Source of the DNA: a virus
Strand: one strand, 5' to 3'
Length of the DNA: 64,000 bases
Virus record (IMG/VR): IMGVR_UViG_3300045988_057942
The notes beneath the pieces were generated by a model that did no database searches, was not told the DNA's origin, and saw nothing but the letters and a program-made list of their open reading frames with translations. How positions within the stretch are numbered: position 1 is the first letter of the stretch; every line of letters starts with the position of its first letter. This document shows, piece by piece, positions 2,139 to 63,704 of the stretch. Made by a program: the position numbers and the translations under genes.

Positions 2139-2162
2139 CCATCCTCTACGGGGAGTCTACAC
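2139..2162 (+). repeat. GC-rich dispersed repeat copy (ccatcctctacggggagtctacac), intergenic, 28 nt upstream of gene 2190.
   Basis: Core CCATCCTCYACGGGGRGT. Confidence 0.9.
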
Positions 2163-17369: not shown

Positions 17370-17392
17370 CCATCCTCTACGGGGAGTATAGC
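17370..17392 (+). repeat. GC-rich repeat copy (ccatcctctacggggagtatagc), intergenic, flanked by imperfect 10-bp inverted repeats ttagctagg / cctagctga.
   Basis: Core match. Confidence 0.9.
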
Positions 17393-37700: not shown

Positions 37701-40595
37701 CAAGATGATAGCACTAGACGTTTATTACTTAATGCTACTTATGCTACTGTTACAGGTAATGAACGCAATATAGAAGCTATTATGGATGATTTTGCTAATA
37801 GTGTTGATAGTGAAGGTAATACTAGAGGTAAAATTGTTAATGGTAAAGTCTATCTTAGTATTGGTCAATTAGTTGAATATATAGATGGTATTACAGGAAA
37901 TAAAATTATTAAAAATTATTTGTTTAATCAAATAAAAAACTATCTTTACGCAAGCACTAATAATCAAGGTAAATATCGTGCTACTGATGAATCAACTATT
38001 AAGAAACTTAATGCTAAACAATTTGTTCAATATGTAGATGGTATTACTAAAGAACGTCTTGAAAGACTTCAAGTTGAACATACTAATAATGTTAATCTTA
38101 AGTATATAGTAGAGAATGAAAATGTTAAAGCATTTACTAGTATTAAGCAAGGTGATTATTTAGAAGCTGTATATAATATTAAACTTAAACGTATTGATAT
38201 TTTTGCTAAAGATACAATTATTGGTTATATAGGAGTTCCAAATATTGATAAGTTTGGTAATTATGATATGGTTAACCAAGGTTGGAAATATAATATTCAT
38301 GCTGAAAATGGTCAAGTTATTTCTCCACTTAAAGACGCTTTAATTAGTATTCTTGATGGTGATAGATTTGATGAAGAATTTATTGGTCATTTATATGAAC
38401 TTGCTGTTAAAGAAGAAGTTACACAAGAAGAACTTGTTAATCTATTTAAAGAATTTGAAACTAAATATCCTGATATAGTTAGAGATTTTACTACTCCTGT
38501 TGCAAGTTTTGATTTAGCTGGACATCTTGTTAATCTTACTAAATATATATTTAATCAACCTTATGAAAACAGTCATGAAGCTAGTATTAATCGTTGGTTT
38601 AATAATCTTCTTAATAGTTATGACCAAGCTATTACAATAGTTAAAGGTGACTTTAAAGGTAAAGTTAAAGCTGTTAATGTTAAATATGGAGTTCTTAATA
38701 CTATTGATGATGCTAATGGCGAATGGAATGATGTACAAGAAACAGTAGTTAATTATAGCGAAGATGTTAATAAACTTGGTGTAGTTGTACAAGGTCAAGT
38801 ATATCTTAATGGAGAAAGCAAACCTACTATTATTGAAAATCTTACTACTAATGGTATGCCTGTTATTAGTATTCCAAGTAGTGACGGTACTTCTTTATAT
38901 GCTTTTTGTAAACAAGTTCCATTAAATAGTAATCTACTTAAAGGTGATGCTCGACGTATTACTAATTCTATTAAGAATGAAGTTAATAATCTTTGTAGAG
39001 ATTATATTAGTGGTAAAATAAGTTTTGGTGAACTTAAACAAAGTCTTGGAGATATATTTGGAAATAATAAACTTATTAACGGAGATAGAAATACTGGACT
39101 TCAAATTAGTATTAATCCTACTAATATAGGTTTTTATGTTAAAGGTGCACATTTTAATGGTAAGGATTATGCTTTTACTATTAATTCTGATGCTGGTAAT
39201 TATAAACGTAATATTATTATTAATTCTCCTTATGTTGTTAATAGTGCTTTTAAAATAGGTAAAAGTTATGGAATTAATGCTAGTACTATTGATGAATTAG
39301 ATAATGCTCTTCGTCCTGTTATTGATGAAATGTTTAACTATGCTCAATTTGCTATTAGTAAAGATTTTATTAATGATAGTACAAAAACTAATAATAAAAC
39401 TAATAAATATATTTATCGCGAAAATGGTAAAACTATTATAAATATTGATGGTGAAACTTATTCTTATAATAGTTATCAAGATTTTATTATTAGTAATGGT
39501 TTAATTAGAACTAAGTTAGCTAATACCAATACAGATGATACTGCTGGCAATTGGAAAGTTGATATACATTCCCATCTTGATATTGCTTATGAGTTAGAGG
39601 GTAGACCCCCCGTGGAGGATGGAGTTATACCTGAACAGCTATCTGAGTTTATGCTAGATGATACAGTTAATGCTATCAATATTAATTCTTTTGAATCTGC
39701 TTTAACTGCTAATAATCTTACTAGAGGTCTTAAAAAATACTTTGCTAATGACCAAACTGCTATTGATTATATCGATGCTCTTCAAAAACTTAATATATTA
39801 CCAAAAAATGTTCAAGTAGTTGATAGTCTTATAGATAACAATGGCAATCAAGTTAATGCTGTTTATCATCGTAGTACTGATACTATTGAACTTAATAGTT
39901 CTTCTATTGCTGGTCAAAGAGTTTATAGAGTTGTTAATATTATAGTTCATGAAAGTTTACATAGACAACTTTATACTAAGTATAATACCGAACAAGCAAT
40001 CGCTTTAGTTAAACCTATTTATGATAAGTTTAAGACTTGGCTTGATACTCAAGATGATTCTACTAAAGAAAGACTTAAGCCATATCTATTTGAAAGTTTT
40101 GATACTGCCGAAGCTTTAGAAGAATTCCTTGTTGAAAGTATTACTAGTAATGCTCTTATGACTGCTCTTAATGAAATAAAAGATGACAATAGAAAAACTA
40201 GTAAACGTAAGACTCTGTTTAGTAGACTTCTTGAAGTTATTGCTGATATGCTTGGTATCAAGATTAATGAAAATAGTTTATTAGCTTCTGCTAGAGATGC
40301 TTATAAAGCTATTAAAAAGATGTCTATTGAAACTAATCAAGAAGCTACTCAAGGTACTTTTAAATTTGAAGAACCTGTTATCAATACTGAACAAACTGAA
40401 AATCCTAACGAAGATATAAGTCAAGAATATAATTATAATAATGATAATCTTAATGATGGACTTGATATGTTTAGTAGTATTGATGATGATATAGTGCTGA
40501 ATATGGCTGAATTGACTAGCCGTTTGCCAATAGCACAACAGTCCGAATTTGCCACTTTGCTTGACACAGGACGCATCAGTTTTAGCTGTATGTAG
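34722..40595 (+). CDS. Giant virion (cargo-type) protein, 1957 aa, with an HExxH zincin-like motif ('IIVHESLHRQLY', ~aa 1745) and an acidic Pro/Glu-rich low-complexity region.
   Basis: Long ORF. HESLH motif. Repeat-derived peptides 'SPSSTGSIAERSEAVLS' and 'RPPVEDGV'. Confidence 0.85.
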   Translation: MDVLKFLQGGNQTPNPKYNPKTKKGAIQPPTLVDYNPGTSISDRGRGRLFGRIAEQSYNLNQYNIDKYAPYDVYVNPVDDHEKLDKERAVNQSNWEQGLRMIGQIGNEITVGTAIGFADLADAFYNMVSNSPNDYQSEISSELESLKESINERLAIYRENPNAAFDIGDFAWWASNAPSIASSLTLMVPSTGLAKGVSLLGKSIKFNKLANKMANAINMTQKSRAITGRIAEATAIGVPSRYLENYQEARQTYNDIEDYSKTQLANMNDKQREEFYNNNPKYRDMSDEEVAKDIAKNSADVTFAEDWANVLFDVWQVYSLKNLWKNALSGNTTSSRLRNLNTAFNSNIDDAAAITNALSNKTTKQAITSTLKDIGDDILHGVRAEWTEGVEEAINYIASQDGMYNGKKVFDKDIPQQTIKDYLQDPMLWEQAFWGALGGITFSSVMNKAGEFINKRLDKDWTSAEKQRENEILGRTATFQAYQERLNSIANGKNPFITITDENGQQVNPDIITGTEEELRNIAEKEYMDNIIINSMNAGNLGLLESSINSKEFNDSITNKLGLQQQDSIELINRFKTEINNIKNEYNTTLNKVNRLGGGFEVGRIIATQMVHARNRQENYNNLLNWANNVLNQDITNNHIEDVDITSAKNGIYQHILDSIQRDIKTIQDNAAINDSVKQERIAQLNERLDAINKLYTPIDIENKNDIQSAIQLQKQYNEVFKDLAEVVNAEINVEVNKNQLNLSDDNIKSRITYLNNFFDNSRKKIVNKAMDDLRNAYKQYGKEYVNSVIKDANNGNKPNIDKVIRDAYAALDLSSKGNEHLKNTIEQLAEIAKIENDVNNTPKEEEVAPVNPDVNEVNETDVDDTNSSPSSTGSIAERSEAVLSEPTNTEQLQSQTEQPISQEPISTPKPEVNNTLPDDDFERGQIGTDLVYESIADLEDSLGHESTSSDLLNARQSFIDKLSQAGFEQTEAADIVNNIIDGLTGGSLYSSVQDDSTRRLLLNATYATVTGNERNIEAIMDDFANSVDSEGNTRGKIVNGKVYLSIGQLVEYIDGITGNKIIKNYLFNQIKNYLYASTNNQGKYRATDESTIKKLNAKQFVQYVDGITKERLERLQVEHTNNVNLKYIVENENVKAFTSIKQGDYLEAVYNIKLKRIDIFAKDTIIGYIGVPNIDKFGNYDMVNQGWKYNIHAENGQVISPLKDALISILDGDRFDEEFIGHLYELAVKEEVTQEELVNLFKEFETKYPDIVRDFTTPVASFDLAGHLVNLTKYIFNQPYENSHEASINRWFNNLLNSYDQAITIVKGDFKGKVKAVNVKYGVLNTIDDANGEWNDVQETVVNYSEDVNKLGVVVQGQVYLNGESKPTIIENLTTNGMPVISIPSSDGTSLYAFCKQVPLNSNLLKGDARRITNSIKNEVNNLCRDYISGKISFGELKQSLGDIFGNNKLINGDRNTGLQISINPTNIGFYVKGAHFNGKDYAFTINSDAGNYKRNIIINSPYVVNSAFKIGKSYGINASTIDELDNALRPVIDEMFNYAQFAISKDFINDSTKTNNKTNKYIYRENGKTIINIDGETYSYNSYQDFIISNGLIRTKLANTNTDDTAGNWKVDIHSHLDIAYELEGRPPVEDGVIPEQLSEFMLDDTVNAININSFESALTANNLTRGLKKYFANDQTAIDYIDALQKLNILPKNVQVVDSLIDNNGNQVNAVYHRSTDTIELNSSSIAGQRVYRVVNIIVHESLHRQLYTKYNTEQAIALVKPIYDKFKTWLDTQDDSTKERLKPYLFESFDTAEALEEFLVESITSNALMTALNEIKDDNRKTSKRKTLFSRLLEVIADMLGIKINENSLLASARDAYKAIKKMSIETNQEATQGTFKFEEPVINTEQTENPNEDISQEYNYNNDNLNDGLDMFSSIDDDIVLNMAELTSRLPIAQQSEFATLLDTGRISFSCM
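37329..37371 (+). repeat. Extended GC-rich repeat copy (ccatcctccacggggagtat + agcgg agcga agcga agcgg ttc), in-frame in 34722-40595.
   Basis: Core plus (AGCGR)4 pentamer tail. Confidence 0.9.
39604..39622 (-). repeat. GC-rich repeat copy, reverse (gaccccccgtggaggatgg), in-frame (RPPVEDG).
   Basis: Core reverse complement. Confidence 0.9.
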
Positions 40596-40725: not shown

Positions 40726-43700
40726 ATGAGTTGTGGAAATATTAAACTTGTAGGATATAATAATCTTAATAATGTTATTATTAAAGAACATGGTTCTAAT
40801 AATGCAGATTATTATAGTCTTATAGCTATGGTTGAAGACCCAATCTTTAAGAAGATTGTAGCTGATAAAGGTATTAATGTTAAAACTTCTGGAAGACAAG
40901 CTTATAATGCTCTTCTTGAAGCTAGAGCTATTAAACTCCGTAATATGGATGATATAGCTTCTGTTGCTGAAAAAGAAGAACGTGGTTTGTTTAGTACAAT
41001 TAAAGCTAGAGATACAGCTATTACTTATATGGCTGATATTATGAATAAACTTAGTTTTAATTTTCTATATAATGGTGCTCCATTAAATTTTAATGAAATT
41101 AAAAAACGTACTAATGAAACTGTTATTAATGCTGGACTTAAACGTGCTAAGAAATTAGCTGGAAGTGATGAAACTAGAAATAATGAACTTAATAGTTTTA
41201 TTAATAATCCAAATCCTGCTATTAAAATTAACGGTCTTGGTGCATTTCTTCGTAAATACGGTAATGCTCAAGATTTTAATTATGGGGCATTACTGCGTTC
41301 TCTAACTAATACTGAATTTAATGAAGCTCTTTTTAATAATAAGAATGTTGCTAAACTTATTAAAAGAGATGAATTATATCAAACTACTGATTATGAAGAA
41401 TTAGGCGGATATCTTGATGAAACTTTTACTGAAGGTGATGAAAATAGTATAGATGATGGTATTGATTTAATGACTCAACTTTGGAATTTAAGTATTGGTG
41501 AAGTTAAAGATTTTAATAAACACGTAGAAGAAATTATTAAATATCATCTTGCAAGTTTACCTAAACTTACTGCTGCTTCTCAACTTGATAATGGAAGTTA
41601 TCCTTTTGATACTAATAATGAATTAGGAGTTGTTACTTTTTCTGATGCTAATTATTTATCTAAAATATTATATGCTAGTGCTGATACTAGTAATGTAGAT
41701 AATTTTATAGCTAGTCTTAAACGTATATCTGAAACTATTCCAAATTGTGAATGTTTAATTCAATTACATGATTTACTTAGCAAAAATAAAGTATTTGCTA
41801 ATAAGTATATGATGGTATTTAATAAACCTATTATATCTAAAATTGAAACTTATATTCAAACTGATTCTAATGGTAATAGTTATGTTCGTGCTCGTGTAAC
41901 TAATCCTAATACTGATTCTCGTACTATTTTACAGAATACTTTTTATAATAATGTTAAAAATAATATTATTACTAATCGTGTTCCTAGTGCTCGTGAAAAG
42001 TTTCGTATATATGATAGATATAAAAATACTCCTCATGCTAATCTTTATTTATATGATGCTTTTAAAGAAATATTTCCAGATATTAATCAAGCTAGTTTTA
42101 ATTTAGCTATTGCTAAAATTGGACGTATTGCTATGGCTAATAATCTTATTAACTTTGCTAATGTTATTAATCGTACAGTTGAAAATTATAATAAATATGT
42201 AGAAGCACTTAAAAAGGATAAAAGAACTAAAATGCCTGATAGTTTTATTAATAGAGGTGATACTTCTATTATATATCAAATGGCTGATGTTTTTAAAGAT
42301 ATTATTTATATTCCTGTTGAACTTAATTCTCGTAATCCTGAAGGTAATTTAAGTTCTGATGTTATTAATAGAAGTTTTATTACTAATATTGCTAAAATTA
42401 TTAATGATGATAAATCTACTGTTGAAGAGCAAAATGCTATGGTTGAAGCTTATGCTAAACAAAAGTTTGCTAGTCATCAATATGATTATAGTAATTTACT
42501 TCTTGAACATAGAGATAGTAATGGTAATATAATTAATTATGGATTATTTAGAAGAGTTGGAAATGGAACTCCTAAACTTACCGAATATGCTCGTAGTATG
42601 TTTAAAACTTCTCTTCTTAATGGTATTAGCGAATTAGATAATAACAATAATGACTTATATCGTAGTATGAGTGATGGTGATTATTTAATTACTGCTATGG
42701 GATTATTTATGACTGATATTAATAATTCTGAAACTCCTACTGCTAATTATTTACTTCCCATACCTAGTGATGCTCCTAAAAACTTTACTATTACTGCTCC
42801 TAGATATAGTCTTGCTGGATTACGTAGTCAACTAGAAGATGGAACTAAAATTATAAATAGAGAACATCCATTATTTAAACAGTATTATAATATAGTTATT
42901 CAAGAACTTACTAATATGGCTCAAGCTGTTAATGTAATGTTTAAAACTAATGCTAATGGTAATCCTATTTTAACTAATGGAGATTTTGAATTTAGTGATA
43001 CTTATAATAATAAACCTGAACATTTTTATAATCAATACCATAAAGATGGAAAAGATAATGTATTTACTACTAAAGATGGACATAAAGTTTTAGCTGGTAG
43101 AGTATTTAGTTTTAAACGTTTAGCTAGTAAAATTACTCCTAATAGTAATGGAGCATTTAATGAACTAATTGGGTATGGTAAGACTATTGACATCCTCTAC
43201 GGGGGGTCTACACGTGGACTTAGCTATGTTAATAATCAAGTAGTTCTTAATGCAGAACAACGTATTGCTCTTGAAGATGCTGTTGCTGATTGGTTAAATG
43301 AATATATAACTAATGGTTATAAAGAACTTAAAAATAAATATGGTACATTTATTGATGATAGGATTAATAATGAATCTTTAGCTGAGTTTCTTGTTAATGA
43401 CTATCTTGTTAGAGATAGTATGTACGATATGTATGGCGGCGACCAAAGTTTTTATAAAAATGGTCAAGCTATTCTAAAACGTATTAAAGAAGTACAAGCT
43501 AGTGGTAATCCTTTTGGTAATACAGACTTTACTAAAAATGATTTAGATATAGCTACTAATTTATATGATGTAACAATTAATGGTAATGCTATTACTGTCC
43601 CTTATACAGTTAATGGAGTTGTTAAACGTAAAAAAGTAGTTCTACAAGATAAATTTAGAGGTGTTACTATTTATAATACTTTTAAATCTTCTGATAAAGT

Positions 43701-46700
43701 TGTTATTGATAGACTTGATGACCAACTTAAAAAAGCTGGACTTGATAAAAAAGACAGAGAACGAATATTAGAACCATTTAAAGGAGGAGTTAATGCTAAT
43801 GATGCTCAATCTTATATTACTCTTGAAGAATGGATTCGTCGTATTACTGCTGCTGGTGAATTAGATAAATATGCTGGACTTATTCAAAGTCTTACAGATG
43901 ACACTCCTATTGATAAAATTGATTGGAATAAATTTGCTAATAAAGTTCAAATTCAAAAGAATTTCTATTATGATTTATATTATGATACTACTGTTGGTAT
44001 TGAAGTTCCTAGACAAGTAAAGAATGCTGAGTTTGTTCTTATTCCTAAACTTATTAAAGGAACAGAACTTGAAAAAGTTTATAATATAATGACTAATAGA
44101 GGTATTCATCAGCTTAATACTGTTGAAACTGTTAAAGTTGCACAACATAACAGAATGACACTTTGGAATAACGATGGGGTTCTAACTGATAAAGCTCTTA
44201 AAGAATTTGATGATAATGTATTTGATAATTCTGAATTGTTTAGTTATAATTATCTTTATCGTCAACAAGAAGTTCCTCAGCATATGGTTGATGCTAGTAA
44301 TAAAGCTGCTATTCAGATTATGAAAAAAATGCTTGATAATCTTCCTAATAAACCTGAACTTAATGACCTTAAAAATAAAGTATTTAATAATTATGTAGCT
44401 AATATTAGAAATAGTTTTGAAAAAACTTGTGCTGAACTTGGTATTGGATTAGATGATAATGGTCATATTGATTTAAATTCTAATGGTACTATTAAAAATC
44501 TTAATCGTTTTGTATTTTTTGATAGATTTAAAGAAAATGCTCAACAACAAGGAGTTGAGAAAGCTTTTCTTGAATTTTTTGATTTAGATAGTGCTGGATT
44601 TAATAATCTTCCTTTATTCTTATCTAATATTAATAGTAAACTAGAAAGTATTGCTAATAGTTATTTTAATACTAATATTACTAGACAACTTATTAGTGGT
44701 TGGCACGCTGCTCAGTTATCTGATTTTGGATTTAAAGTTGATAAACAAACTCAAACAGATAGTAAACTTCAATATAAGAAAATTGGAGAAGTTGATGGCA
44801 CTCCTGTTTATTATACTGAAATTAAACTTCCTAGATGGAGTAGTAAACTTAAAGGATTAAATATTGAACAAGTTCCTGATAGCTTACGTACTATGATTGG
44901 TTATCGTATTCCTACTGAAGGTAAGCAATCTATATGTATTATGTATGTTAAAGAGTTTCTTCCTGATGCTTATGGTAGTACTGTTGTTGTTCCTGATGAA
45001 TGGGTTACTCAAACTGGTTCTGACTTTGACGTTGATAGTGTTTATGGTATGTCTAAAACATTTAATCTTGTTAAAGGTGTTCCAACTGAAATTACTCATG
45101 CTAGATATACTAAAGATGAAGTAGGATATATTAATTATGTTAAAGATAATGTAGATAAAGCTAGTCGTAAGATTCTTGGTAAGACTTATAATAAACAAGG
45201 TAATATTAGAGCTTCTTTAAAAAATAGTGAAGATGCTATTAATGCTACTCTTGAAGGTTATAATGGCAATCTTAAAGTTGTTGAAAAAATTGCTAATGAT
45301 GGTGGACTTAAGTCTTACGAATCATACTTGAAACTCCCCGTGGAGGATACAAGTAGTCAAGCTGCTAGAACTAATGCTATTATTCAATCATTTATTGATA
45401 TACTTAATAATCCTGCTGCATTTGAAGAAAATACTACTACTTCTAATTTTGAAAATGTCAAAGAAGCTAATGAAACTTATGCAGAAATAGTTGGCGCTAA
45501 TAAAACAACTGTTGCTCCTAGTGATTTCTTTACTCAACTTGATTGGTTTGATGCTGCTACTTCTGGTATTAAACTTAAAGGTATCAGTGTTAATAGAGAT
45601 ACTTTTATGAGTATTGGAAATGTTACTAAAGCTAATCATAGCGAAGGTATTAAAGTTATGTACACTACTGATGTGATTAGTGAGCAAGAAGCTGTTAATA
45701 GATATGGTAAAGAAAATGTTGAAACTATTGGTAATAAACATATTCGTATTACTCATAAGAATTTTGGTTGGTCTGGAGATGATAAGAATGTTGATGGTTA
45801 TTTGATTAATCCTTATAGTTCTCAGACTACTGCTCATATTCTTGATGTTATGAAAGAGGGAGCTATACATAATGAAAATACTTATACATTTAATGCTTTC
45901 AAAACTATTGTTGACTTTGGAAGTAATTATGATACTGCTATTGGATTTATGTGGCAACCTGCTATTGATATATTAGTTCGTAAATGGAAAGAAACTAATA
46001 GTGTTCTTGCAGAAGGTACTAAAAATCCGCTTACTGAAGCTATTAGAGAAGTTGCTCATAATCTTGGTTTTGGTGAAAAAGTTAATTTTGCTGGACGTAA
46101 AAAGCTAATTGATATTATTAATGAAAGTTATGGTGAAACTTTCAAGAAATTATTCAATTTAAGCGTTTCTGAGGCATTTTCATCACCCAACCTTATATTT
46201 TCATCAGACGCATATAAATCTCGTCTTAGAGGGGAAATGAATGGGGTTCAGCAGGCTTTATTTGACCTTTATGTTCTAGCACAATTCAATCGGTTAAACT
46301 CAATCGGACAGGATATAAGTAATAATCTTAATATTCTTAGTGCTGATAAATATGGTGCTAAACAAAGTTTTTATGCTAGTGATAAAGTATTTAGAGATGC
46401 TAGAACTGTTATTGAAAATAGTAATATTTATGCTCCATCCTCTACGGGGGGTCAAACCTTGTTGTTAGAGAGTGTATTTCCTGATATTAGTGGTGGTATA
46501 GATGCGTTTATTAAATCAGATATATCTAAAAGTAGTTATCCTAGTTTAGCTGCATTTTTACAAATGAGTACTGCTCTTAGTGTTAAAGCTACTCAACAAG
46601 TATTTGAAACTGCTAATCCTGTATTTATTGATTATGTATATAGAATAGCGGAATGGACTAAAGGTGGAATAATGACTGAAAAGTTATATAATGACTATAA

Positions 46701-49700
46701 AGATTATCTTATTAATAAACTAGAAGTAGGTAATAATGGTAGTTCTTATCTTAATTTACCTGTTACTGTTGTTAATGGAGATTTTGTTCATCCTAAATAT
46801 ATTAAAGAATATGGTACTGGACAATCTAGAGCTTTAGAAGTTGGTAGAGTTAGTGGTACATTAGTTAATATTAAAACTGATGATGTTGTAGTTAAAAATA
46901 TATTTGAACCTACACAAACTGAAATTGATGTATTTGCTAGACTTACACCTGCTCAAAAAGTTGATTGGATTAAACGTAATTTTAGTCAAGACGGTAGTAT
47001 ATTTGCACATATTGAAATAGTTGCTAATGATGAAAGAAATAATCGTCGTAATGTAAATATTCAATATATTAATTATATACAAGGTGATATTACTAATGAT
47101 GAAGCCCATAGATTGTTTGATAGAGCTTGGAATCATCCTAATCCTCTTATTAAACTTGCAGCTCTTGATTTAGTTAAATATGCTTTTATTGTTGAAGGTC
47201 ATAAATTTAGAACTAGAAATATTAGTAGACTTATAAGTAATACTCCCCTTAGAGGATTGAGCGATAATGGAATAGCTATTGGAGATATAGCTATGAAAGG
47301 CATTAATAACTATGGTTTTATTGATAAAGATAATGTTGAAGATATAATTGGTTTTATTCGTAAAAATTATAATAGTTTTAATTGTCCTAGTTATACATTT
47401 AAAAGACTTACTAATAATAAAATTAATTATAGTCTAAAAAGAAGTGGTATTATTACTTTTAATGGTCAAGAAAATCTTGATAATGTAGGAATAATAAGAA
47501 ATGGAGATGCTGTTAATGTTATTAGAATTAATAAAAATTTATATATTAAAGGAACTTATGATGGAACTTTAGCTTATTATCCTATTGATAGACTTGAATC
47601 ATTTGAAACTTATAATAGTATTGAGCCTAGTATTATAGCTAATAATAATATTCATAAACCGTTAGCTGTTCTTCTTTATGAAGGTCTTACTCAACAAGAA
47701 AAACGAGATAAATTTATTGATGGTATTAAAGACAATATTAATGAAGCTATAAATAAAGGTTATAAAGAAGTTCCTGAACTATATGGTAAATATATATCTG
47801 ATGAGTATTTCCAACCTTTTATGAATACTCCTTTTGAGAATAATACTATATATACTATTAATGATAAATTTTATCTTAACATTAATGGAACTACTGCTAT
47901 TAATTTAAGCGATGATTTACAGCAATATAAAGCTAAATATCCTAATATTGAAGATAGTAAACTTGGATTATTTATTGAAATTAATGAAAATGAAATAGAT
48001 AGAGTTACAAGTAATACTGATAGATATAGTAGTGTTGATGACCAAACTCCTATTGGTAGATTTGCTAAAAATGCAAGTTTAATTATTTCAAGAGCTGTTC
48101 GTCATGGTCAACCTGCTGCTCAAAATGTATTAAACGCTCTTAATAATGCTGAAATTAATTATCTTGATAGTAGTAGTCTTTCTGATAATTCTGAATTTTC
48201 ATTATCAGTTATAGCTAATTATATAGATGTTGAAGCTAATAATATTCTTAATGATATTAATCGTTTTATTAAAATTGATGGTATCGATAAACCTATTAAC
48301 GATAAAGATGTTATTGGTAAAGTTCTTAAAGATGAACAACTTCAAAATCGTTTCTTAGATGTTATTCTTAGTGCTAATACATTTAAGAATAAATACAAAC
48401 TTATTAGCGAAATTGATATTGATAGTACAAATCTTGATGATAAAACTAAAGAGAATATTAGAAAGATTCAGAAACTAGTTAATCAAGTTGATTCTAATAC
48501 TACTGTACATTCTGCTAGAAAAGATTGGTTTGAAAGATGGATTCAATTACGCACTACTAATCCTAATTATATAAGTGGTCTTATGAAAGAATTTGATGCT
48601 TATGGTGATACTGGATTTATGGATTATTGGATACAAGATATTCGTGCTAATCGTAACTTTGTATTGCAGAATATACTTAAAGATGTAATGGGTACTGTTG
48701 AAGAAGGTCGTCTTAACGGTATTAAAGAAGCTAATGACTTTAGAAATTATCTTAAAGAACTTAAATCTAGAGCTACTAAAGATGGTAAATCTGTTAGTCT
48801 TGATAGTATAATTGATGATGATGGTAGATTAATTCAACCTAATAATCCTATTTGGGAAGAAAAGATAAAGAAATATAGAGATGCTGCTATTGAAGCTGAA
48901 CAAAAATTTGGTATAAATAGTGTTGAACATCTTATTGCTTTATCTAATAAAGCTAAATTTATTGATATGACTACTATTCATCAGCTTAAACCAATCACTG
49001 TTCAAGATGAAGATGGCAATGATGTTACTATTGAATATTCTACTTATATTATAAATCTTGAAAGAAGTTTATTAGGTCTTAAAAAAGGAGATGATGGTAT
49101 TCCTAAAGAATTTGCTGAATATAAAAGACTTAATGGTAGAATACGAGATATTCTAAGCCAAGCTACTGATAATGTTACTACACAAAGTCAAGATGAAGAA
49201 CTTGGACGTATCTATGCTCAAATGGATAGCCTTACTAGTCTTTATGATGAAGATGGTAATAAAAAGATTGGTCATGATTTAAATGTAGCTGAAAGACTTC
49301 GTGCTTATCAAACTAATATTCGTAAAGTAAAAGAAATGTTCTATGATAAGCAAGCTAAAGAAGGATTTGATTCTAAACTTAAAGAACAACTTTCTATTAT
49401 TAGTAAATATGAAAGTCAACGTGATGCTAATGGTAATCTTCTTATTAGTATGGAAGAACTTATGAAAGTTCCTGAATATCGTGAAGCTAAAGAATGGATT
49501 CGTAAGAATACTAGATATATTCTTGATATTAAAGATATAGAAGATTTAAATTGGGCATTTGAAGAACTTAAAGACGCTAATAAAGGTAATAGTGTTCTTA
49601 ATCTTGCTATTAGAGAATTTCAAGCTAAAGATGAATTTAACGTAGTTGATGGACGTAAAATACCGGAAGAACGTGCCGCTCTCATAAAAGCTGAAACAGT

Positions 49701-52700
49701 TAGAAAATATAAATATACTAAAGGTAATGGTATACCTTATGTTGGTATTATTCGTTCTGCTGAAGATGAATTAAGAATTTATCGTGCTGATTTCTATAAT
49801 TATCTTACAGGTAATAAATCTAAGAGCGAAGAAGAAATTAATGTAGGAGAAGCTATTAATAAAATACTTGAAAAATATTTTGATAATGCTACTAGAACTC
49901 TTAATACTGCTGATATTAGTCAAGAAGATTTAGAACAACTCAAGACTGGTTTTGAAGTATTTAATGAAATTACTAGAGGAGAAAAGAGTGTTGATAAAGC
50001 TAAAGCAAAACGTGTTGCTGAATTTATTGAAAGTGAATGTGATGTTACTTATAATTGGAAGCAATATGAACTTGATAAAAATAGAGCTTTTGCTAAAGGT
50101 AAAAAGTATTATGATAAATGGCTAGAAGTATTTAGTGAACAAGTTGAAGAAAATGGAACTATTGCAGAAAGACCTAATCGAACTATTTATGGTATTATTA
50201 AACCTAAAGATTTAGATAAATGGACTGATATTGATAAAACTGCTGCAATTAATATTCTTCAAAAAAGAACTAGAGAAACTACTACTCAATATTATTATAT
50301 AAAAGAAAAAGAAGTTCTTGATAAATATGGTATTGATAGTCCAGAATATAAACAATGGTATAGAGATAATCATTATTTTGACCCATATACTCGTACTATT
50401 AAACCTATTCGTATTTGGACTACTATGCAAATGATTAAAGATGATGGTTCAGCTGTTGTTGGTAATTATGAACCACGTATTAATCAAATGCATATTACTC
50501 CTAAAGAAGAACTTATTAATCCAGAATATAGTAGTTTTGTTAATAAGTATAAAGTAGGAACAGGATATGATAATCCTAATTATACTAATCTTAATGAGTA
50601 TCAACTTGAACTTATGAATAAAGTAAATGAACTTATGAAAAAGTATTGTTTTACTAATAGTAATAAGCGATATGTTGATATGGGTTATCTTCCAGCTTTG
50701 CCTAAATCTAAAGATATGACTGTTAAAGATTATTTTGAACAAGCTCTTAGTTTTCTTGGTTGGACAGCCAATGTTCCTAATAATACTAGTTGGAGAAATA
50801 ATGAAGATTTAACTTTTGATAAAGATTATGATATTCCTAATCCTAGATTAGTTCAGTTAGTTAATAAAGATACTCAACAGTTGCCTACTATACCTAAATT
50901 TAAAGAGCCTAATGAAAGTGATGAAGAATTTAGTAAACGTAAAGCTGCTGCAATTAAAGCTAGAGATGAAATTATTGAAAAGAATAATAAAATTCATAAT
51001 GATATTCTTAATCGTAATTGGGAAGAAGTATTTAATAGTTTCTTAATTGAAAGTAATAGATATAATGCTATTAAAACAGTTAAAAATCTTCTTTATACTG
51101 CTGACCAAATTATTACTAGTAATACTGCTTACGATATAAATTATAAAGGTAGTATAAGTGAAAATAGAGAAGCTAGTGCTGGTGGTGAAATTGAATATAA
51201 ACAAGAAAAACAAACTAGAACTAGTGAACATCTTAGAAGTTTTATTCGTCGTCTTGTATTTGAACAATATAAAGATAATAAAATTCCTAATCTAGTTAAA
51301 CTTGGTTCTCTTGCTCAAAACATTGCTGGTAGTAAATATATGATGATGAACATTACTGGTGGTATTGCTAACGTTCTTACTGGTTCTAGTAATATATTTA
51401 TGGAACGAGCTGCTGGTGAATATATTAATCTTAAAGATTGGGAAGCTGGTAAATCTGAATGGATTAAAGGAACTGTTAGTTATATGGCTAATATGTATAG
51501 TGAAAATAGTAGTACTCTTCAAGATGCGATTATTAAACTTAGTCATGTAGTTGATTTTGATAGAGTAACTGAAGTTAGTACTGCTGAAGGTCTTAAAGAA
51601 AATATTCGTAGAGTTCGTGGATTACTATTTAGTCCTCAATCTGTTGGTGAACATTATATGCAAAATGTTATGCTATTTGCTATGCTTAAATCTCATAGAC
51701 TTGTTGATAATGGTAGAGGTGGTTATGATATAATGAGTAAAGAAATGTATCATCGTAAAGCTGAACAAGATGCTCTTATGTCTGTAATAAATACTCCCCG
51801 TGGAGGAGAGAACCAAGCTCTACTTGAACAATTCAATAAGTTCATGGATGAAGCTAAAGCTGATAATAAAAAACGAGCTAAATATAATCTATTTAAAGCT
51901 AATCCTATATTTGATTTTGTTAAGACTTATCTTAATGAAGAACAACAAAGAGAATATATAGCTAAACGTAAAGAACTTATTAAGAATATTGATAAAGAGT
52001 TTGCTAAACTTCCAGATATTTATAATCAGTTTGAACTTAAAGATGGAATTGCTCAAATAAAATCTGATAGTAAACTTACTCTTAAAGAATATGCTAAATT
52101 TATTGATAAAGTTCGTGAAGTAAATAAGAAAGTTCATGGTGTTTATGATAAACTTGGTTCTGCTAATATAGAACAACATTGGTGGGGTGGTACGGTTATG
52201 CAATATCATAAACATCTTTATCCTGGTTTTAAGAAACGTTATCGTTGGAACGGTTATTATAATGAAACTCTAGGTACTATTGAAAAAGGTAGTTATACTA
52301 GTCTTTATGATTATTTGACTATTCCATTTAAAGAAACTAACGTAGGAGAAATTAATAATGTAAGTGATGTTCTTAAAGCATTCCAAACTTATGGTAAGAA
52401 TTTACTTTCATTTGCTGTTAATTTCAAACTTAATTATGAACTTCTTCCTGAACATGAAAAAGCAAATATTAGACGTAATTTAGGTGATTTACTTTATGTA
52501 GGTGCTGCTATTATTGGAGCAATTGCTATAACTGGTATTGGAGGTGATGACGATGAAAGTATTATGTATAATCTTATGCTTTATCATGCTGACCGTCTTG
52601 CTTCTGAAGCTGCATCATTTACTCCATTTGGAGCTTATGCTGAAGGTAAAAAGCTATGGTCTAGTCCTGTTGCTATTGGACAAACTATTAATGACTTACT

Positions 52701-54081: not shown

Positions 54082-54123
54082 GAACGCTCCGCTTCGCTAC
54101 GCTCAACTCCCCGTGGAGGATGG
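54082..54123 (-). repeat. Extended reverse copy (gaacgctccgcttcgctacgctcaactccccgtggaggatgg). Left arm of the intergenic inverted pair.
   Basis: rc = ccatcctccacggggagt + tgagcgtagcgaagcggagcgttc. Confidence 0.9.
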
Positions 54124-54200
54124 AATAGACTAGTATTCATTCAATCAATATAATCATTATTATTAATAACTATACTAATATTACTAGCATAACTACTATT

Positions 54201-54252
54201 CCATCCTCTACGGGGAGTATAGCGAAGAGTGCGTAGCACTCGTAGCGGTTCC
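54201..54252 (+). repeat. Extended forward copy (ccatcctctacggggagtatagcgaagagtgcgtagcactcgtagcggttcc). Right arm of the inverted pair. The pair encloses a 77-bp AT-rich core (MITE-like unit 54082-54252).
   Basis: Seen directly. Confidence 0.9.
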
Positions 54253-56387: not shown

Positions 56388-56600
56388 AGATAAACTTCAT
56401 TACCTTCAACTTTAGCATCACTAAAATGACTTTTAAAACTTTCAACACTTCTACACCATAAAGGTTCAAGTCCATTAAGTTTATAAATAACAGCAGGAAT
56501 CCATTCACCTGTATCTGGATGTTTCATTTTAGTAATACTAATAATTATATATTCATTAGACGTTTTATTATGAATATAACGAGCACCAACTTTAAGCTTT
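56384..56600 (-). CDS. DUF1653-like small protein. The track ORF extends to 56701, overlapping dUTPase, so the true start is probably internal.
   Basis: 'GARYIHNKTSNEYIIISITKMKHPDTGEWIPAVIYKLNGLEPLWCRSVESF' fits the DUF1653 pattern G.Y.H.K...Y.V....H..T.E..V.Y..L......W.R....F. Confidence 0.45.
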
Positions 56601-57260
56601 AGCTGCGCCGCCTGTTCCTTTTCCAAATCCTTTGTTTCCACGTTCAGTTTCACCAAGTTCTTCAATAGAATTAACTTCTTTCCAAGTAATACGTTGAGCA
56701 CTATTAATAATTAATTGTGCACATCTATCTTCTCCATTACAATCATAAGGAGGAATAGAAACTTTAGCAAGAATATTAGTCATTGTAGTTCTAACACTAT
56801 TAAGTTTAAGTCTAGAATTACCTACCATACTATCAGGTAAATGCATATGTTGTCTAAGTTTATCAACTACTTCAACAAGGTCAGATACAGCATGAATTAA
56901 ATCTCTAGAAGTACGATTCTTAAAAATAATAAGAAGTTCTCCACGATAACCCCAATCAAGAGTACCAGGTGTATTTGGCATATAAAAATCAGATTTAGTA
57001 AGATTACTTCTAGGACGGAGAGCCATTTCGTTAGGATTACCATCATCATCATTACCAATAGCAAATGCTAAACCAGTATGATATATAAATCTATCTTTAG
57101 TATTATCATATTCACAGTGTATAGGATAAATATCCATACAAGCATCACCTTCTTTACCATAAACAGGTAAAATAGGTTGAACATTACAATACTGTTCTAC
57201 ATCTACAACATCTCCACTAAGAAGTTGAATTTCTTTTAGCTTAAATACTTTTATTTCCAT
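56592..57260 (-). CDS. dut: dUTP diphosphatase (dUTPase) with an insertion.
   Basis: Motifs 'LRPRSNLTKS', 'DWGYRGEL', 'RCAQLII' and C-terminal 'ERGNKGFGKGTGG' correspond to dUTPase motifs 2-5. Confidence 0.65.
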   Translation of the reverse strand: MEIKVFKLKEIQLLSGDVVDVEQYCNVQPILPVYGKEGDACMDIYPIHCEYDNTKDRFIYHTGLAFAIGNDDDGNPNEMALRPRSNLTKSDFYMPNTPGTLDWGYRGELLIIFKNRTSRDLIHAVSDLVEVVDKLRQHMHLPDSMVGNSRLKLNSVRTTMTNILAKVSIPPYDCNGEDRCAQLIINSAQRITWKEVNSIEELGETERGNKGFGKGTGGAAKA

Positions 57261-57279: not shown

Positions 57280-58341
57280 TTAAAGAGCTTCTGCAAGTGC
57301 AAAAGCATTTTCTATTTTTCTTGATTTATCACCATAACAAATACTATCAAATCGCTTAGTACCTTCAATATTATCTATATTAGAATAATATCCACTAACA
57401 GCATTAACAGCTCCCCAAGCAGTACCTAAAATATCTCTTTGACCAGGACCATCAAAATAATAATTATAAGTATCAGAAATAACATTCATTTTTCTACTAC
57501 TTATTTTACTATCAGATAAAGCTAAACCATTACGATAAGCAATATCTTTAATAGTATGACCTGTATCTTTTAGACGTTGAATTTCATCACTAGTAAGAAG
57601 ATTTTCTCCAATAAATTGAATTACATCTTCATCAGTAACTTTAATATTAGCAAGTAAATTACAATATTGACCAAATTCTTCAGATTTAATTTTACTAATT
57701 CCAAGTATTTCTTGTGCAACAGAAATCTTATTATGAACACTAGTTGTATGTCGAAAACTAACATAATTACTACTAGTACGAATAGCAGCATTAAGAGTAT
57801 TTTGACAAATAACTCTAATAGGAGTAAATAAAATCTTAACTCCGCCACTACCATCATGAGTATTAGTAAATACTAGATAATTTTCAACAGGGTCACCTTT
57901 AACAAGAATATTATTAGGAAGTTTAGCACTTACAAATATTCTCTCACCATTTCCCCAAAATCCAGCAGTTTGCCAAATAGCAGAATTTTTACCAATAGCA
58001 TCATCAAAGAAATTAAAAGCATCATTGTTTTGTACAATAGTATATTTACTTTTAACAACACCTAAAGGAATATTGTAATCAGTACGATAGGTAGCAAAGG
58101 CGTTATCACACTTACGATAAATGTCAGTACCAAAAACATGAGCGCCTTCTTTTTGTTCTTTAATAATTTTATCAAGTTCTTCATCAGTTCCAGTAAGTTT
58201 AATAGGCATTTTACCAACTAGTTCACATTTAGCTACATTAAAATTAAGTCCAGCTTTAAGCATAACTTCTTTAGCAGTAGAACAATCTGATACATCAATA
58301 GCACCAGAATAAGCCCAAGGTTTACCTTTAACTTTATACAT
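57280..58341 (-). CDS. Phage protein, 353 aa. Possibly DUF932 family.
   Basis: Size, position and overall sequence pattern resemble DUF932. Assigned by eye only. Confidence 0.35.
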   Translation of the reverse strand: MYKVKGKPWAYSGAIDVSDCSTAKEVMLKAGLNFNVAKCELVGKMPIKLTGTDEELDKIIKEQKEGAHVFGTDIYRKCDNAFATYRTDYNIPLGVVKSKYTIVQNNDAFNFFDDAIGKNSAIWQTAGFWGNGERIFVSAKLPNNILVKGDPVENYLVFTNTHDGSGGVKILFTPIRVICQNTLNAAIRTSSNYVSFRHTTSVHNKISVAQEILGISKIKSEEFGQYCNLLANIKVTDEDVIQFIGENLLTSDEIQRLKDTGHTIKDIAYRNGLALSDSKISSRKMNVISDTYNYYFDGPGQRDILGTAWGAVNAVSGYYSNIDNIEGTKRFDSICYGDKSRKIENAFALAEAL

Positions 58342-58523
58342 TAATTATAAGTTTTAATATATTCAATAATACGTTCAATATCTCTAATAGCTTGACTGTT
58401 AGTAACTCCATAGGTATCTATATACCATTTAATTACTTCTCTTACTTTATCTTCTAGTTCCATAATTAACAAGATTAGTAGTGTTGACTCCCCGTAGAGG
58501 ATGGAATGCACATCATCCTCCAC
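58341..58523 (-). CDS. Small hypothetical protein. The track start is GTG inside the GC-rich hairpin; an internal ATG (MELEDKV..., ~58460) is the likelier start.
   Basis: ORF. Its N-terminus overlaps repeat copy 58514-58533. Confidence 0.4.
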   Translation of the reverse strand: MEDDVHSILYGESTLLILLIMELEDKVREVIKWYIDTYGVTNSQAIRDIERIIEYIKTYN

Positions 58524-58533
58524 GGGGAGTATA
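58487..58533. repeat. Inverted pair of GC-rich repeat cores (actccccgtagaggatgg - aatgcacat - catcctccacggggagtata). An 18-bp stem hairpin with 1 mismatch between two '-'-strand genes.
   Basis: Seen directly. Confidence 0.9.
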
Positions 58534-58539
58534 ATTTAG

Positions 58540-59322
58540 CTATTTAATAATAAGACTAGTATTTTCGACAAACTTAGCAATACTAATATCTCTACCATTG
58601 TTAAGAATATTTTTCATAGTAGTTTTATTAACAGAACTACTTCTAGTCATTTCATGTTGATGATTAAAGAAAGTATTAATCAAATCAAAATTAGCTTTAT
58701 TAGCTAAATCACCGATAGGTTTTTCAATTTCAAATTTAACTTTAATACAATCTAAATCATCAAGAGTAAAATAACCTCCAGTTTCTTCTTTAAGTTTAGC
58801 AGATTGCTCAGGATAATTTATAGCAAATTTAGCATTAATATTATCAAGCATAATTTCTCTATTAAACGATTCAACATCATCATTAATTAAATCATTATCC
58901 CAAAGAGTTTTAAAATGGTCTAATACTAAATCTATAAATATTTGATTAAGACTTTCATCTACTTCAACACATTTACTATTTCTAGTATAAAGTTTACTAT
59001 CAATCAAATCAATAGACCTATTACCAGATTCACCTAAATTGCCATAAGTAATAACAGCATCAAGCATAACACTTTTAAGTCTATTAGCATGATTCTCTTT
59101 AGTTTTACGAAGAACAGCTAATCGTTGCTCTTCTTTTTTACAAGATTCAGCTTCAAGATTAAGTACAGTATATGCTTTACGATAACTATCAAGTTTGGAT
59201 TTAAGACTTTCTTGTGTAATAGCGAGGCGTTCTTCAAGTTCAGGAGTTAATTCACCTCCATTTTCTTCTAACTCAAGAAATATATCCTCAAGTTCAGCAG
59301 TAATATTATAAATATTTGCCAT
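58540..59322 (-). CDS. Gp157-like (Siphovirus Gp157 / Gam-like) coiled-coil protein with a C-terminal extension.
   Basis: N-terminal 'MANIYNITAELEDIFLELEENGGELTPELEERL...KKEEQRLAVLRKTKENHANRLKSVMLDAV' is typical of this family. Confidence 0.45.
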   Translation of the reverse strand: MANIYNITAELEDIFLELEENGGELTPELEERLAITQESLKSKLDSYRKAYTVLNLEAESCKKEEQRLAVLRKTKENHANRLKSVMLDAVITYGNLGESGNRSIDLIDSKLYTRNSKCVEVDESLNQIFIDLVLDHFKTLWDNDLINDDVESFNREIMLDNINAKFAINYPEQSAKLKEETGGYFTLDDLDCIKVKFEIEKPIGDLANKANFDLINTFFNHQHEMTRSSSVNKTTMKNILNNGRDISIAKFVENTSLIIK

Positions 59323-59573: not shown

Positions 59574-59600
59574 AACTTTAATATTTAAATAGTTAATAAT

Positions 59601-62497: not shown

Positions 62498-63704
62498 TTA
62501 TAACAACAGTTTTAATATGAAATGGAACTCTAGAAACACCACTCCGTTCACCATATTCTATATGAACAGTTCTACCAATATAAGATTGAGAATCAAATAA
62601 AACTTCTTGCTGAACAATATGACTAGTGCTTAAACGAGTTTCAAACTTTTCATTATTAATATCATTTTTACAAAGAAGAATAGGTAAATCACGTTTCTTT
62701 TCTTTATAAATATCAAGAATGATAAAATCTCCCTCAGCAGAATCTTTAAACTTCTCCATATAATTAGCTCTACGTCTACCATATTGATAATCAGTTTCAG
62801 CATTACGAAGTATAAGACCTTCAAATCCTAAATTAATAAAATGATTTCTAGCGTCAATAGCTTCATTATCATTAGTAATATATCCACTAGGAAGAATAAT
62901 CAATCGTTCTTTATTATTATAATGTTCTTTAATATTATTAAAGCAAGTAGGAAGCTTAATATGATAACGATATGTATTTCTATGAGCTTGATTACCTTCC
63001 ATCATAATATCATAACACCAAAACTGAAGAAGTTTATTTTCAACACAATTAGCATCTTTAACAAAATGATTAATTTGATTAACAGTATAACCGGGAAGAT
63101 AAACTTCACCATCAAGTGCTGCAAATCCATTAATCATATCGTCGATAATATTTGTATTAATAGTAGCAAGCAGATAATCTTCAAGATAGCCAAGAGTATG
63201 CCAAGTAAGACCTTCACGACTTTGGAAACGAAGCCTAACAGGTTTAAACATATCATTTTGAGTATAAGCAGTAACAATACAACGCAGACCATTAATCTTA
63301 TACTGACCATACATACAACTGACTTTTTTCCAAACATTACCATTATACGTTTTAGCAAGCATTGGAAGTAAAAGATTACTGTTTCCATTACTAAGGTCTT
63401 TAGGTAGATAAGTATTTAGAAAATTAAATAGAGTATCATTATCTCCATCCTCCACGGGGGGTAAACCCTGCATATCACAAAGTTCATTAAGATATGTATA
63501 TCCTTGTTTAATCTTATCATTATATCTACTTTCAAGTTCTTTTTGACCATCTTTTTGAGTAACAGCATAAACTTCTTTACGAATATTACCTCGAACAAGA
63601 CCATAAAAAACAGTGATACTATTAGTACCACTGTCAAGTTCAGCCCACCAAACAGTAGGCACACCATTATTATTTCTACGATAAAGTTTATTCATTATGT
63701 TCAC
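62478..63704 (-). CDS. ATP-dependent polynucleotide ligase (DNA/RNA ligase-like nucleotidyltransferase).
   Basis: Motif I-like 'KINGLR', motif III/IV-like 'ALDGEVYLPGY' and 'EGLILR', motif V-like 'KFKDSAEGDFIILDI'. Confidence 0.5.
   Translation of the reverse strand: MNIMNKLYRRNNNGVPTVWWAELDSGTNSITVFYGLVRGNIRKEVYAVTQKDGQKELESRYNDKIKQGYTYLNELCDMQGLPPVEDGDNDTLFNFLNTYLPKDLSNGNSNLLLPMLAKTYNGNVWKKVSCMYGQYKINGLRCIVTAYTQNDMFKPVRLRFQSREGLTWHTLGYLEDYLLATINTNIIDDMINGFAALDGEVYLPGYTVNQINHFVKDANCVENKLLQFWCYDIMMEGNQAHRNTYRYHIKLPTCFNNIKEHYNNKERLIILPSGYITNDNEAIDARNHFINLGFEGLILRNAETDYQYGRRRANYMEKFKDSAEGDFIILDIYKEKKRDLPILLCKNDINNEKFETRLSTSHIVQQEVLFDSQSYIGRTVHIEYGERSGVSRVPFHIKTVVINGDTRL
63444..63461 (+). repeat. 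GC-rich repeat copy (ccatcctccacggggggt), in-frame in ligase gene on the opposite strand (LPPVEDG).
   Basis: Core match. Confidence 0.9.

Follow-up and report, generated by a model that had tools for sequence, protein, structure and literature searches.

Short DNA words that recur throughout a genome are known from several systems. Chi of Escherichia coli, a host-genome property of 5 to 8 nt that is skewed by replication direction, is read by an enzyme travelling along the DNA. The DNA uptake sequences (DUS) of Neisseriaceae and the uptake signal sequences (USS) of Pasteurellaceae are short asymmetric words of 9 to 12 nt with weaker flanks, which occur equally in both orientations and at even spacing, lie mostly in open reading frames (ORFs) yet are enriched in non-coding DNA, form terminator-like hairpins when paired as inverted repeats, and fall into lineage dialects (PMC1939737). 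The uptake sequences of Haemophilus influenzae (DUES), in particular, are found within ORFs in 65% of cases and as inverted repeats in about 10%, with significant even spacing and no orientation bias (PMC1939737). Among phages, nick-linked words of T5, the phiKMV group and the tf/LUZ24-like phages (WACTRTGAC or TACTRTGMC) are scattered in and out of genes above chance and are kept across relatives of little nucleotide identity; WACTRTGAC is kept, in and out of genes, in 61 Pseudomonas phages (PMC11780129). Here, we describe a dispersed word in a 64,000-nt stretch of viral DNA (IMG/VR record IMGVR_UViG_3300045988_057942, referred to in full as the window), which by its approximately 93 to 94% identity to Carjivirus communis (crAssphage) genomes is identified as a strain of that species, in reverse orientation relative to the reference. 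The word came to attention through a GC-rich hairpin at 58487-58533. In this hairpin, two copies of a short strand-specific word stand back to back in convergent orientation, one per strand, in a rare intergenic gap, and about 30 copies of the word are kept in every Intestiviridae genome tested. Overall, the locus is best explained as two convergent sites of a strand-specific signal under selection at the nucleotide level, to which we assign a probability of roughly 0.6; that the signal acts in replication or recombination is a considerably less certain step.

The two arms of the hairpin are facing copies of one 18-mer, the left reading ACTCCCCGTAGAGGATGG on the + strand and the right reading ACTCCCCGTGGAGGATGA on the minus strand (Table 1). 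By re-reading and folding, the sequence was found as given in the initial annotation, including its near-perfect GC-rich stem with a single A/C mismatch. The stem pairs 58487-58503 with 58514-58530 around a 10-nt loop (58504-58513); the mismatch lies at 58496/58521 of the + strand and becomes a G-U pair in minus-strand RNA. The stem had been counted as 18 bp, of which the eighteenth pair is an extra G-T, such that 17 is the fair count. When folded as minus-strand RNA, the hairpin reached -32.7 kcal/mol (z = -8.0), and none of 200 shuffled sequences was as stable; as + strand DNA it reached -16.3 kcal/mol (z = -5.7). The hairpin is entirely intergenic, inside the 76-nt gap between the stop codon of the Gp157 gene and the ATG of a 40-aa ORF, because the reference annotates the 40-aa gene (KP06_gp32) that corresponds to the ATG at 58463. 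The 60-aa GTG ORF that overlaps the hairpin, and that had been taken as the neighbour on this side, is probably mis-started.

A stable GC-rich stem-loop just past a stop codon is reminiscent of an intrinsic terminator. By contrast to such terminators, the hairpin has no U tract, its stem of 17 bp is much longer than those commonly found, and a dispersed word makes up both of its arms. No T/U run follows it on the minus strand and a terminator scan made no call at this position, in agreement with the earlier judgement that it is not a canonical terminator. A search of the whole window against Rfam returned no family at gathering score.

The 18-mer, ACYCCCCGTRGAGGATGG, was found in 21 copies in the window (at up to 3 mismatches) compared to 0.01 expected, and its count is therefore far beyond chance. 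Each of three complete C. communis genomes carries 31 to 33 copies at syntenic positions. The core of the 18-mer is CCCYRTARAGGA, and its Carjivirus form can be written tACYCCCCGTRGAGGATGGa. The spectrum of the 12-mer core is sharp, with 31 perfect copies, 1 copy with one mismatch and 5 with two mismatches (0.8 expected), and matches with at least 3 mismatches are at background. In the window, 15 of the 21 copies (approximately 70%) are inside long ORFs, including those for tail proteins, giant RNA polymerase (RNAP) proteins and ligase, where they occur in both orientations and in three frames and are read as TPRGG, LPVED, PSSTGG, HPLRGV or ILYGGS. Most copies (about 80%) are single, and the single copies do not fold locally. 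The arms of the hairpin also proved to be copies of the repeat core at 54082-54252, the unit with which the initial annotation had proposed to compare them.

Copies were syntenic in 4 genomes with one clear within-species gain or loss of a site, the copy at 12582, in whose place strains ZA and LMMB have a partly similar sequence that is shorter by 9 nt (CAACCTCGACAGGTTG). Between this copy and its partner, the 12318-12599 'unit' consists of ordinary conserved coding sequence. The convergent pair at 54106/54201 lies upstream of the RepL gene in the reference genome, and a paralogous unit is present upstream of the second RepL gene. The RepL-linked units (window 54082-54252; BK010471 28077-28183 and 95745-95875) have similar interiors and outer arms, and could represent the duplication of an origin or of a regulatory module.

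A subset of copies was also observed to carry a GC-rich 5' extension of CGCT or CGCTTCG repeats, sometimes with a small hairpin of variable sequence. This extension is present in two subfamilies, is translated where it lies inside ORFs, and reads AGCGG/GAAGCGG in reverse complement. It is present at 23884-, 37329-, 54106+ and 54201- of the window, at 6021-, 93667+ and 95864- of BK010471, and at 4209-, 47839-, 86212+ and 64741+/64775- of phage crAss002.

Conservation of the hairpin was examined in 21 sources, consisting of the window, three GenBank genomes and 17 Carjivirus contigs obtained by an IMG/VR pattern scan with conserved flanks. The hairpin was detected in 21 of 21 sources in an identical 61-nt interval, such that none of these close relatives is without it, and a scan for intervals of 0 to 30 nt between the conserved flanks found no empty allele. 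Two unrelated loop haplotypes were distinguished among the strains. In 11 haplotypes, none of the 17 stem pairs was altered on both sides; instead, changes in the stem affected one side only and fell mostly in the 3' part of the right-hand copy, which is less conserved. Unrepaired core mutations were present in two strains, and most strains had one to four A-C mismatches on the sense strand. Because the arms are without compensatory changes, there is no positive evidence of selection on pairing, and the arms behave as two independent motif copies. In the Delmidovirus genome cr11_1, the genes of the orthologous interval abut with no hairpin between them, and a single site is found inside the Gp157 gene instead. 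As a separate observation, the loop of contig L114 is the exact reverse complement of the loop in the L105-type haplotype (homologous to window 58504-58513), a flip-flop inversion such as short inverted repeats are expected to undergo.

These results bear on a possible RNA-level element, in which the stem-loop would act in early or middle mRNA as a terminator or attenuator that needs no U-run, as an RNase processing site, or as a barrier to 3'-exonucleases for the Gp157 message, with the single copies elsewhere unrelated to the role of the stem. The energy of the stem is in favour of such an element, since it is far below that of shuffled sequence and is kept at -18 to -37 kcal/mol in all sense-strand haplotypes; so is the location of all hairpin-like pairs in three genomes between co-directional genes, and a terminator role has been proposed for bacterial inverted DUS pairs (PMC1939737). 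However, a U-run is lacking, stem mismatches and core mutations have gone uncompensated, and the orthologous interval of cr11_1 does without the hairpin. Furthermore, the roughly four-fifths of copies that are single cannot fold locally, and the family is thus not explained. We regard an RNA-level element as an improbable explanation of the pair.

Constraint on the word was found to act at the level of DNA. In strain comparisons, core positions AC.CCCCGT.GAGG differ in only 0 to 2% of cases, whereas most positions of the immediate flanks differ in 5 to 22% per position compared to approximately 5.6% in wider flanks; as averages over 15-nt bins, the flanks beside the core are only about 1.5-fold above background divergence. 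The sole variable core position (R, 24%) coincides with a synonymous third position in the commonest frames, and the other third positions within the word are invariant. Thus, the word is under strong DNA-level purifying selection.

To place the sites on a longer time scale, coding sites of BK010471 were mapped through protein alignments (local tblastn, segments of up to about 125 aa). Of about 22 such sites, approximately 10 have a counterpart at the orthologous place in cr11_1, in proteins that are 24 to 57% identical. The genes with shared sites encode PolB, an SNF2 ATPase, primase, ligase, RNAP, a tail tubular protein (both members of the pair) and gp78, and some of the shared sites are also present in Rudgehvirus, crAss002 or the Diorhovirus genome cr3_1. 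Four genera share the primase-gene site, which Carjivirus translates as ILYGGS and the other genera as PLRG or PLQG; here the reading frame has changed over nucleotides that were retained. Lineage-specific sites also occur, several of them in small indels between genera. From the shared old sites, the lineage-specific sites and the decayed copy at 12582, turnover of sites therefore exists but is slow.

Six genera of Crassvirales were examined for the word. In four Intestiviridae genera other than Carjivirus, it is present with genus-specific flanks: 30 copies of the form aGACCCCCCGTAGAGGAt in Delmidovirus cr11_1, 17 copies of tcCCCCGTA[GA]AGGAA in the first 50 kb of Diorhovirus cr3_1, 25 to 28 copies (by pattern) of cCCCTGTA[AG]AGGA in 'Rudgehvirus jaberico' (cultured on B. 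cellulosilyticus), and 28 copies of TTCCCCC[AG]TA[AG]AGGAG in Jahgtovirus crAss002 (cultured on B. xylanisolvens). Divergence over this range is considerable, with about 37% amino-acid identity between cr11_1 and the window in the RNAP segment searched. By contrast, crAss001 of the Steigviridae has no perfect core and one core with a single mismatch (0.9 expected). The word co-occurs with a module of PolB, superfamily 1 (SF1) helicase, RecT and ligase, whereas crAss001, which is without the word, has a DnaB/PolA-type module. The crAss001 genome (NC_049977) has over-represented GC-rich 11-mers of its own, CTCCAGAAGGA and CCTTCTGGAGA, at 7 copies each with both strands counted.

Together, the strain and genus comparisons speak against a selfish GC-rich mini-element, be it a miniature inverted-repeat transposable element (MITE), a GC cluster or an element like the Rickettsia palindromic elements, with the hairpin as two terminal repeats and the single copies as solo ends. 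The 'empty' form of a MITE-like unit had been among the initial suggestions. Like MITEs, yeast mitochondrial GC clusters and Rickettsia palindromic elements, the word is a short GC-rich repeat of an AT-rich genome (29% GC) that resides in frame within genes. Further traits to be expected of such an element are the occurrence of some copies in small indels relative to other genera, the degenerate state of one copy in two strains, the longer GC-rich extensions of some copies and the flipped loop of one strain. The presence/absence polymorphism, target duplications and decaying copies of these elements are, however, not seen here. No target-site duplication was found at the hairpin (flanked by GTGTTG and TATAAT) and no direct repeat at the other pairs; no empty site occurs in 21 strains; copy positions are identical among strains, and the approximately 10 sites that are orthologous across genera have been kept at synonymous saturation. 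In addition, most cores are single and lie in ORFs, 31 of 32 cores are perfect with virtually no decayed tail, spacing is even rather than random, and the interior of the 12318-12599 interval is ordinary coding sequence. No transposase is annotated in the reference genomes (by annotation only, with no hidden Markov model search). A selfish mobile element is thus largely excluded by the data and is given a very small probability, and the hairpin is neither a MITE remnant nor a canonical terminator.

A related comparison is to repetitive extragenic palindromes (REPs) and the bacterial interspersed mosaic elements (BIMEs) that they form, associated with RAYT transposases. As described earlier (PMC3733652), these are likewise GC-rich, contain GTAG, and occur singly or as inverted pairs able to stabilise mRNA. 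REPs are imperfect palindromes that lie outside genes, with a terminal GTAG/CGTC tag and an accompanying RAYT gene, whereas single copies of the word are non-palindromic, approximately 70% of copies are intragenic, and the GTAG is internal and variable (GTGG, ATAA or GTAA); no RAYT is annotated here (annotation only, no hidden Markov model search).

The distribution of sites along each strand was tested against simple uniform null models. Copies were separated by about 5 to 6 kb per strand. On the + strand of BK010471, 18 sites had a coefficient of variation (CV) of gap length of 0.31 (P < 2e-4 compared to random placement), and on the minus strand 14 sites had a CV of 0.50 (P = 0.004). The two strand sets of cr11_1 had CVs of 0.58 and 0.42 (P = 0.017 and 0.001). 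Over four genomes, 6 of 8 strand sets were significantly regular (P < 0.03). When strand labels were shuffled with positions fixed, Carjivirus (P < 2e-4) and Delmidovirus (P = 0.0016) continued to stand out in their per-strand regularity. The series of minus-strand copies in the window (2139, 8361, 12582, 17370, 23884, 30870, 37329, 43190, 46435, 54201, 58513 and 63445) corresponds to one copy per approximately 5.6 kb. The spacing statistics are identical whether sites are classified as sense or antisense or by physical strand, and DNA-level and transcription-level processes are not separated thereby. Superimposed on this spacing is a tendency to pair: minus-strand sites lie near plus-strand sites above chance in 3 of 4 genomes, close pairs (less than 500 nt) are inverted in 15 of 17 cases across three genera, and the hairpin-like pairs (less than 70 nt apart) of three genomes are convergent and intergenic in 5 of 5 cases.

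Spacing and pairing were considered in relation to an architectural or regulatory site in double-stranded DNA, bound by the virion IHF/HU-like proteins, a C4 zinc-finger protein or RepL, that would serve packaging, ejection, replication-origin function or local repression, with the hairpin as a dimer operator before the 40-aa ORF and the DUF932 gene. The length of 12 to 18 bp, the sharp conservation with genus-specific flanks, the even overall spacing, the inverted pairs (which suit dimers) and the presence upstream of each RepL gene of a paralogous pair with an AT-rich spacer are all compatible with such a site. However, regularity is greater per strand than in the merged set and beats permutation of the strand labels, of which a duplex-binding protein has no need. 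The spacers of the pairs range from 9 nt to approximately 450 nt, to which no single dimer geometry can be fitted, and crAss001 also encodes HU/IHF-like proteins in a genome without the word. We consider this type of site unlikely. Of the protein-binding palindrome proposed in the initial annotation, binding remains a live option with each arm as a separate site, whereas the palindrome as a unit does not.

Whether the word may be derived from a host repeat was addressed by a scan for the full 18-mer, as distinct from its 12-mer core, in a single genome of each bacterial and archaeal species. By this approach, matches were limited to crAssphage-like contigs in bins of metagenome-assembled genomes (MAGs), a probably contaminated assembly and isolated chance matches in high-GC genomes, and the word is on this basis not a host repeat. 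The matching contigs included 89 to 98 kb contigs of MAGs labelled Clostridia or 'bacterium', shorter contigs of a MAG labelled Mycoplasma and numerous small contigs from the assembly of Chitinophaga silvisoli K20C18050901; these bacterial-labelled contigs are probably binning errors or contamination in public records.

The scan is also pertinent to a self-identity tag, in which the word, like Chi or DNA uptake sequences, would mark phage DNA on either strand at a distance of no more than a few kb from any break. Its reader would be the phage SF1 helicase, PD-(D/E)XK nuclease and RecT, or a host enzyme of AddAB type; tagged DNA would be spared or recombined and untagged DNA degraded, and the hairpin would be a point at which the two orientations happen to meet. 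The paradigm of USS/DUS and Chi is matched in the equal orientations, the even per-strand spacing and the enrichment in non-coding DNA, and the likeness to DUS/USS extends to the short asymmetric word with weaker flanks, the residence of most copies in ORFs (in poorly constrained stretches), the minority of inverted pairs and the lineage dialects. With Chi, the word shares strand and orientation specificity at a density of about one per 3 to 5 kb. The phage encodes RecT, a PD-(D/E)XK nuclease, an SF1 helicase and a Gam-like inhibitor according to the reference annotation. However, the word is 12 to 18 nt long, phage-specific by the 18-mer scan and without skew, whereas Chi is shorter and abundant in the host genome. 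Its carrier is a lytic phage and not a naturally competent bacterium, such that the word resembles DUS/USS in pattern alone; its copies number about 30 instead of thousands, positions are conserved across genera, and perfect copies outnumber one-mismatch copies 31 to 1, whereas USS/DUS families are rich in the latter. We know of no enzyme of such specificity in these phages. A tag of this type is doubtful, although we rank it ahead of the architectural site.

We return to the strand-specific signal in replication or recombination as the favoured explanation. The potential to form a hairpin would be a by-product of a + site that lies beside a minus-strand site in a rare non-coding gap, and each copy would be read as DNA, one strand at a time, by a trans-acting, lineage-specific factor. 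Because the flanks are genus-specific dialects, we infer that this reader co-evolves with the word in each lineage. In what may be described as a strand-marking system, a 12-nt word every 5 to 7 kb per strand would override codon choice and be read by a phage enzyme; this formulation is tentative. The reader might place nicks or primers on both strands, or might discriminate phage from host DNA in the manner of Chi or USS, with the hairpin as a double site. As to the events themselves, the sites could possibly mark strand-specific steps of replication or recombination, either programmed nicks or the initiation of primers or complementary strands. Nicking or priming was put first because of the precedent of phage nick words and the co-occurrence of the word with the PolB/SF1-helicase/RecT/ligase module, and the mechanisms are ranked as nicking or priming, a Chi- or USS-like tag, an architectural site in double-stranded DNA, an RNA role of the pairs and, last, a selfish element. 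In a transcript, the pair will fold into a very stable stem, which might incidentally serve as a 3'-end barrier after the Gp157 gene, ahead of the genes that follow.

Several points weigh against this explanation. Primases normally recognise about 3 nt, compared to 12 here, and convergent nicks at a distance of 26 nt would carry the risk of a double-strand break. Next to single copies, there is none of the secondary structure that typifies single-strand initiation signals. The + strand sets of crAss002 and Rudgehvirus were without significant regularity of spacing, and these two genomes did not stand out when strand labels were shuffled. The stability of the hairpin as sense RNA in every haplotype leaves room for an RNA role of the pair. 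The known nick-associated motifs are one-stranded and clustered rather than evenly spread, with nicks that have been physically demonstrated (PMC11780129), whereas the sites described here are on both strands, even, and known from sequence. Finally, the step to a mechanism is inferential, and the reader and its nicks or primers are purely putative.

No viruses of the human gut are more abundant than crAssphage and its relatives, and to our knowledge almost nothing is known of their replication and DNA handling. A search of the open-access literature on crAss-like phages with core forms, dialect forms and keywords found no description of the word or its dialects; thus, this genome-wide DNA signal in crAssphage relatives is apparently undescribed. 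A word that is perfect at about 30 even sites, across genera with approximately 30 to 55% protein identity, presumably has an important reader. It provides an experimental handle in the cultured relatives crAss002 and Rudgehvirus jaberico, a sequence signature of Intestiviridae DNA, and a case of DNA-level constraint that shapes viral protein sequences. For annotators, GC-rich hairpins in these genomes are to be regarded neither as mobile-element scars nor as ordinary terminators.

Table 1. Hairpin, neighbouring genes and copies of the 18-mer in the window.
Feature	Position	Strand	Basis or remark
Left arm, + copy of 18-mer	58487..58504	+	sequence, motif scan, fold
Loop/spacer between the 18-mers	58505..58512		fold gives 10-nt loop 58504-58513
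Right arm, minus-strand copy of 18-mer	58513..58530	-	sequence, motif scan, fold
76-nt intergenic spacer holding the pair	58464..58539		sequence, ORF list, reference annotation
Upstream gene, Sipho_Gp157 / Gam-like host-nuclease inhibitor	58540..59322	-	Pfam PF05565, E = 8e-13
Downstream 40-aa ORF, homologue of KP06_gp32	58341..58463	-	ORF list, reference annotation
DUF932 'phage/plasmid-related' gene, downstream	57280..58341	-	Pfam match
Single, intergenic	2139..2156	-	motif scan
Single, in 1296-aa ORF, read PSSTGS	8361..8378	-	motif scan
In 567-aa tail-protein ORF, LPVED frame, partner of 12582	12318..12335	+	motif scan
In 567-aa tail-protein ORF, HPLRGV frame	12582..12599	-	degenerate, 9 nt shorter in ZA and LMMB
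Single, intergenic	17370..17387	-	motif scan
In tail tubular/ring protein ORF, divergent pair with 24097	23884..23901	-	orthologous site in Delmidovirus cr11_1
In tail tubular/ring protein ORF, TPRGG frame	24097..24114	+	orthologous site in Delmidovirus cr11_1
In 759-aa ORF, divergent pair with 31314	30870..30887	-	orthologous to Diorhovirus cr3_1 site
In 759-aa ORF	31314..31331	+	motif scan
In 1964-aa RNAP-associated ORF, CGCT-repeat extension	37329..37346	-	motif scan
In 1964-aa RNAP-associated ORF	39605..39622	+	motif scan
In 4092-aa RNAP ORF, ILYGGS frame	43190..43207	-	motif scan
In 4092-aa RNAP ORF	45333..45350	+	alignment column, orientation and frame equal those of cr11_1 site 67937
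In 4092-aa RNAP ORF	46435..46452	-	motif scan
In RNAP ORF, core mismatch (CCCCTTAGAGGA)	47242..47259	+	mismatch kept in all strains
In RNAP ORF, inside 7-aa insertion relative to cr11_1	51793..51810	+	motif scan, protein alignment
Second convergent pair, 54106+ / 54201-	54106..54218		AT-rich 77-nt spacer, outer GC-rich CGCT-repeat extensions
In DNA ligase ORF (minus-strand gene)	63445..63462	-	orthologous to cr11_1 site 85567

Other functions for the word were considered and set aside. Local structure beside single copies, of the type found at HUH nick sites, REPs or initiation signals, is not a general feature; upstream flanks fell below the 5th percentile of background folding energy in 3 of 32, 4 of 30 and 3 of 28 cases. 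A phage RNA polymerase promoter is not in keeping with sites that face both ways within one-directional operons, and in a study of phage phi14:2 no common motif was found upstream of early transcripts while middle promoters were sigma-70-like. A Shine-Dalgarno-like role of the AGGA half was rejected, as the ATG of GGATGG directly adjoins this half and antisense copies make up one half of the total. An intragenic invertible segment was considered for the divergent pair 23884/24097, which spans 231 nt (a multiple of 3, such that the frame would survive an inversion) and over which a 124-codon antisense frame (23749-24120, minus strand) is open. The antisense peptide is of low complexity, two other intragenic pairs have no open antisense frame, and no recombinase is encoded; the open frame was judged to be a coincidence of codon usage.

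Three further differences between the window and other C. communis genomes were observed. Strain ZA (MK238400 22045-22827) has an extra gene of approximately 750 bp, annotated as a 'coil containing protein', beside the Gp157 gene, which is not present in the window (about position 59600). The dUTPase gene is unbroken in the window (56592-57260) and in ZA, and in the reference (BK010471 24167-25851) and LMMB it contains an intron of approximately 1 kb with an HNH endonuclease. Finally, a reverse-transcriptase gene (RVT_1, E = 3e-18) is located at 20328-21625, just downstream of the tail-collar fibre gene and followed by an overlapping 116-aa ORF, in the stretch of lowest GC content of the window (24%). 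This region is missing in BK010471 and ZA, LMMB has an annotated reverse transcriptase beside its tail-collar fibre gene, and the region is probably a diversity-generating retroelement.

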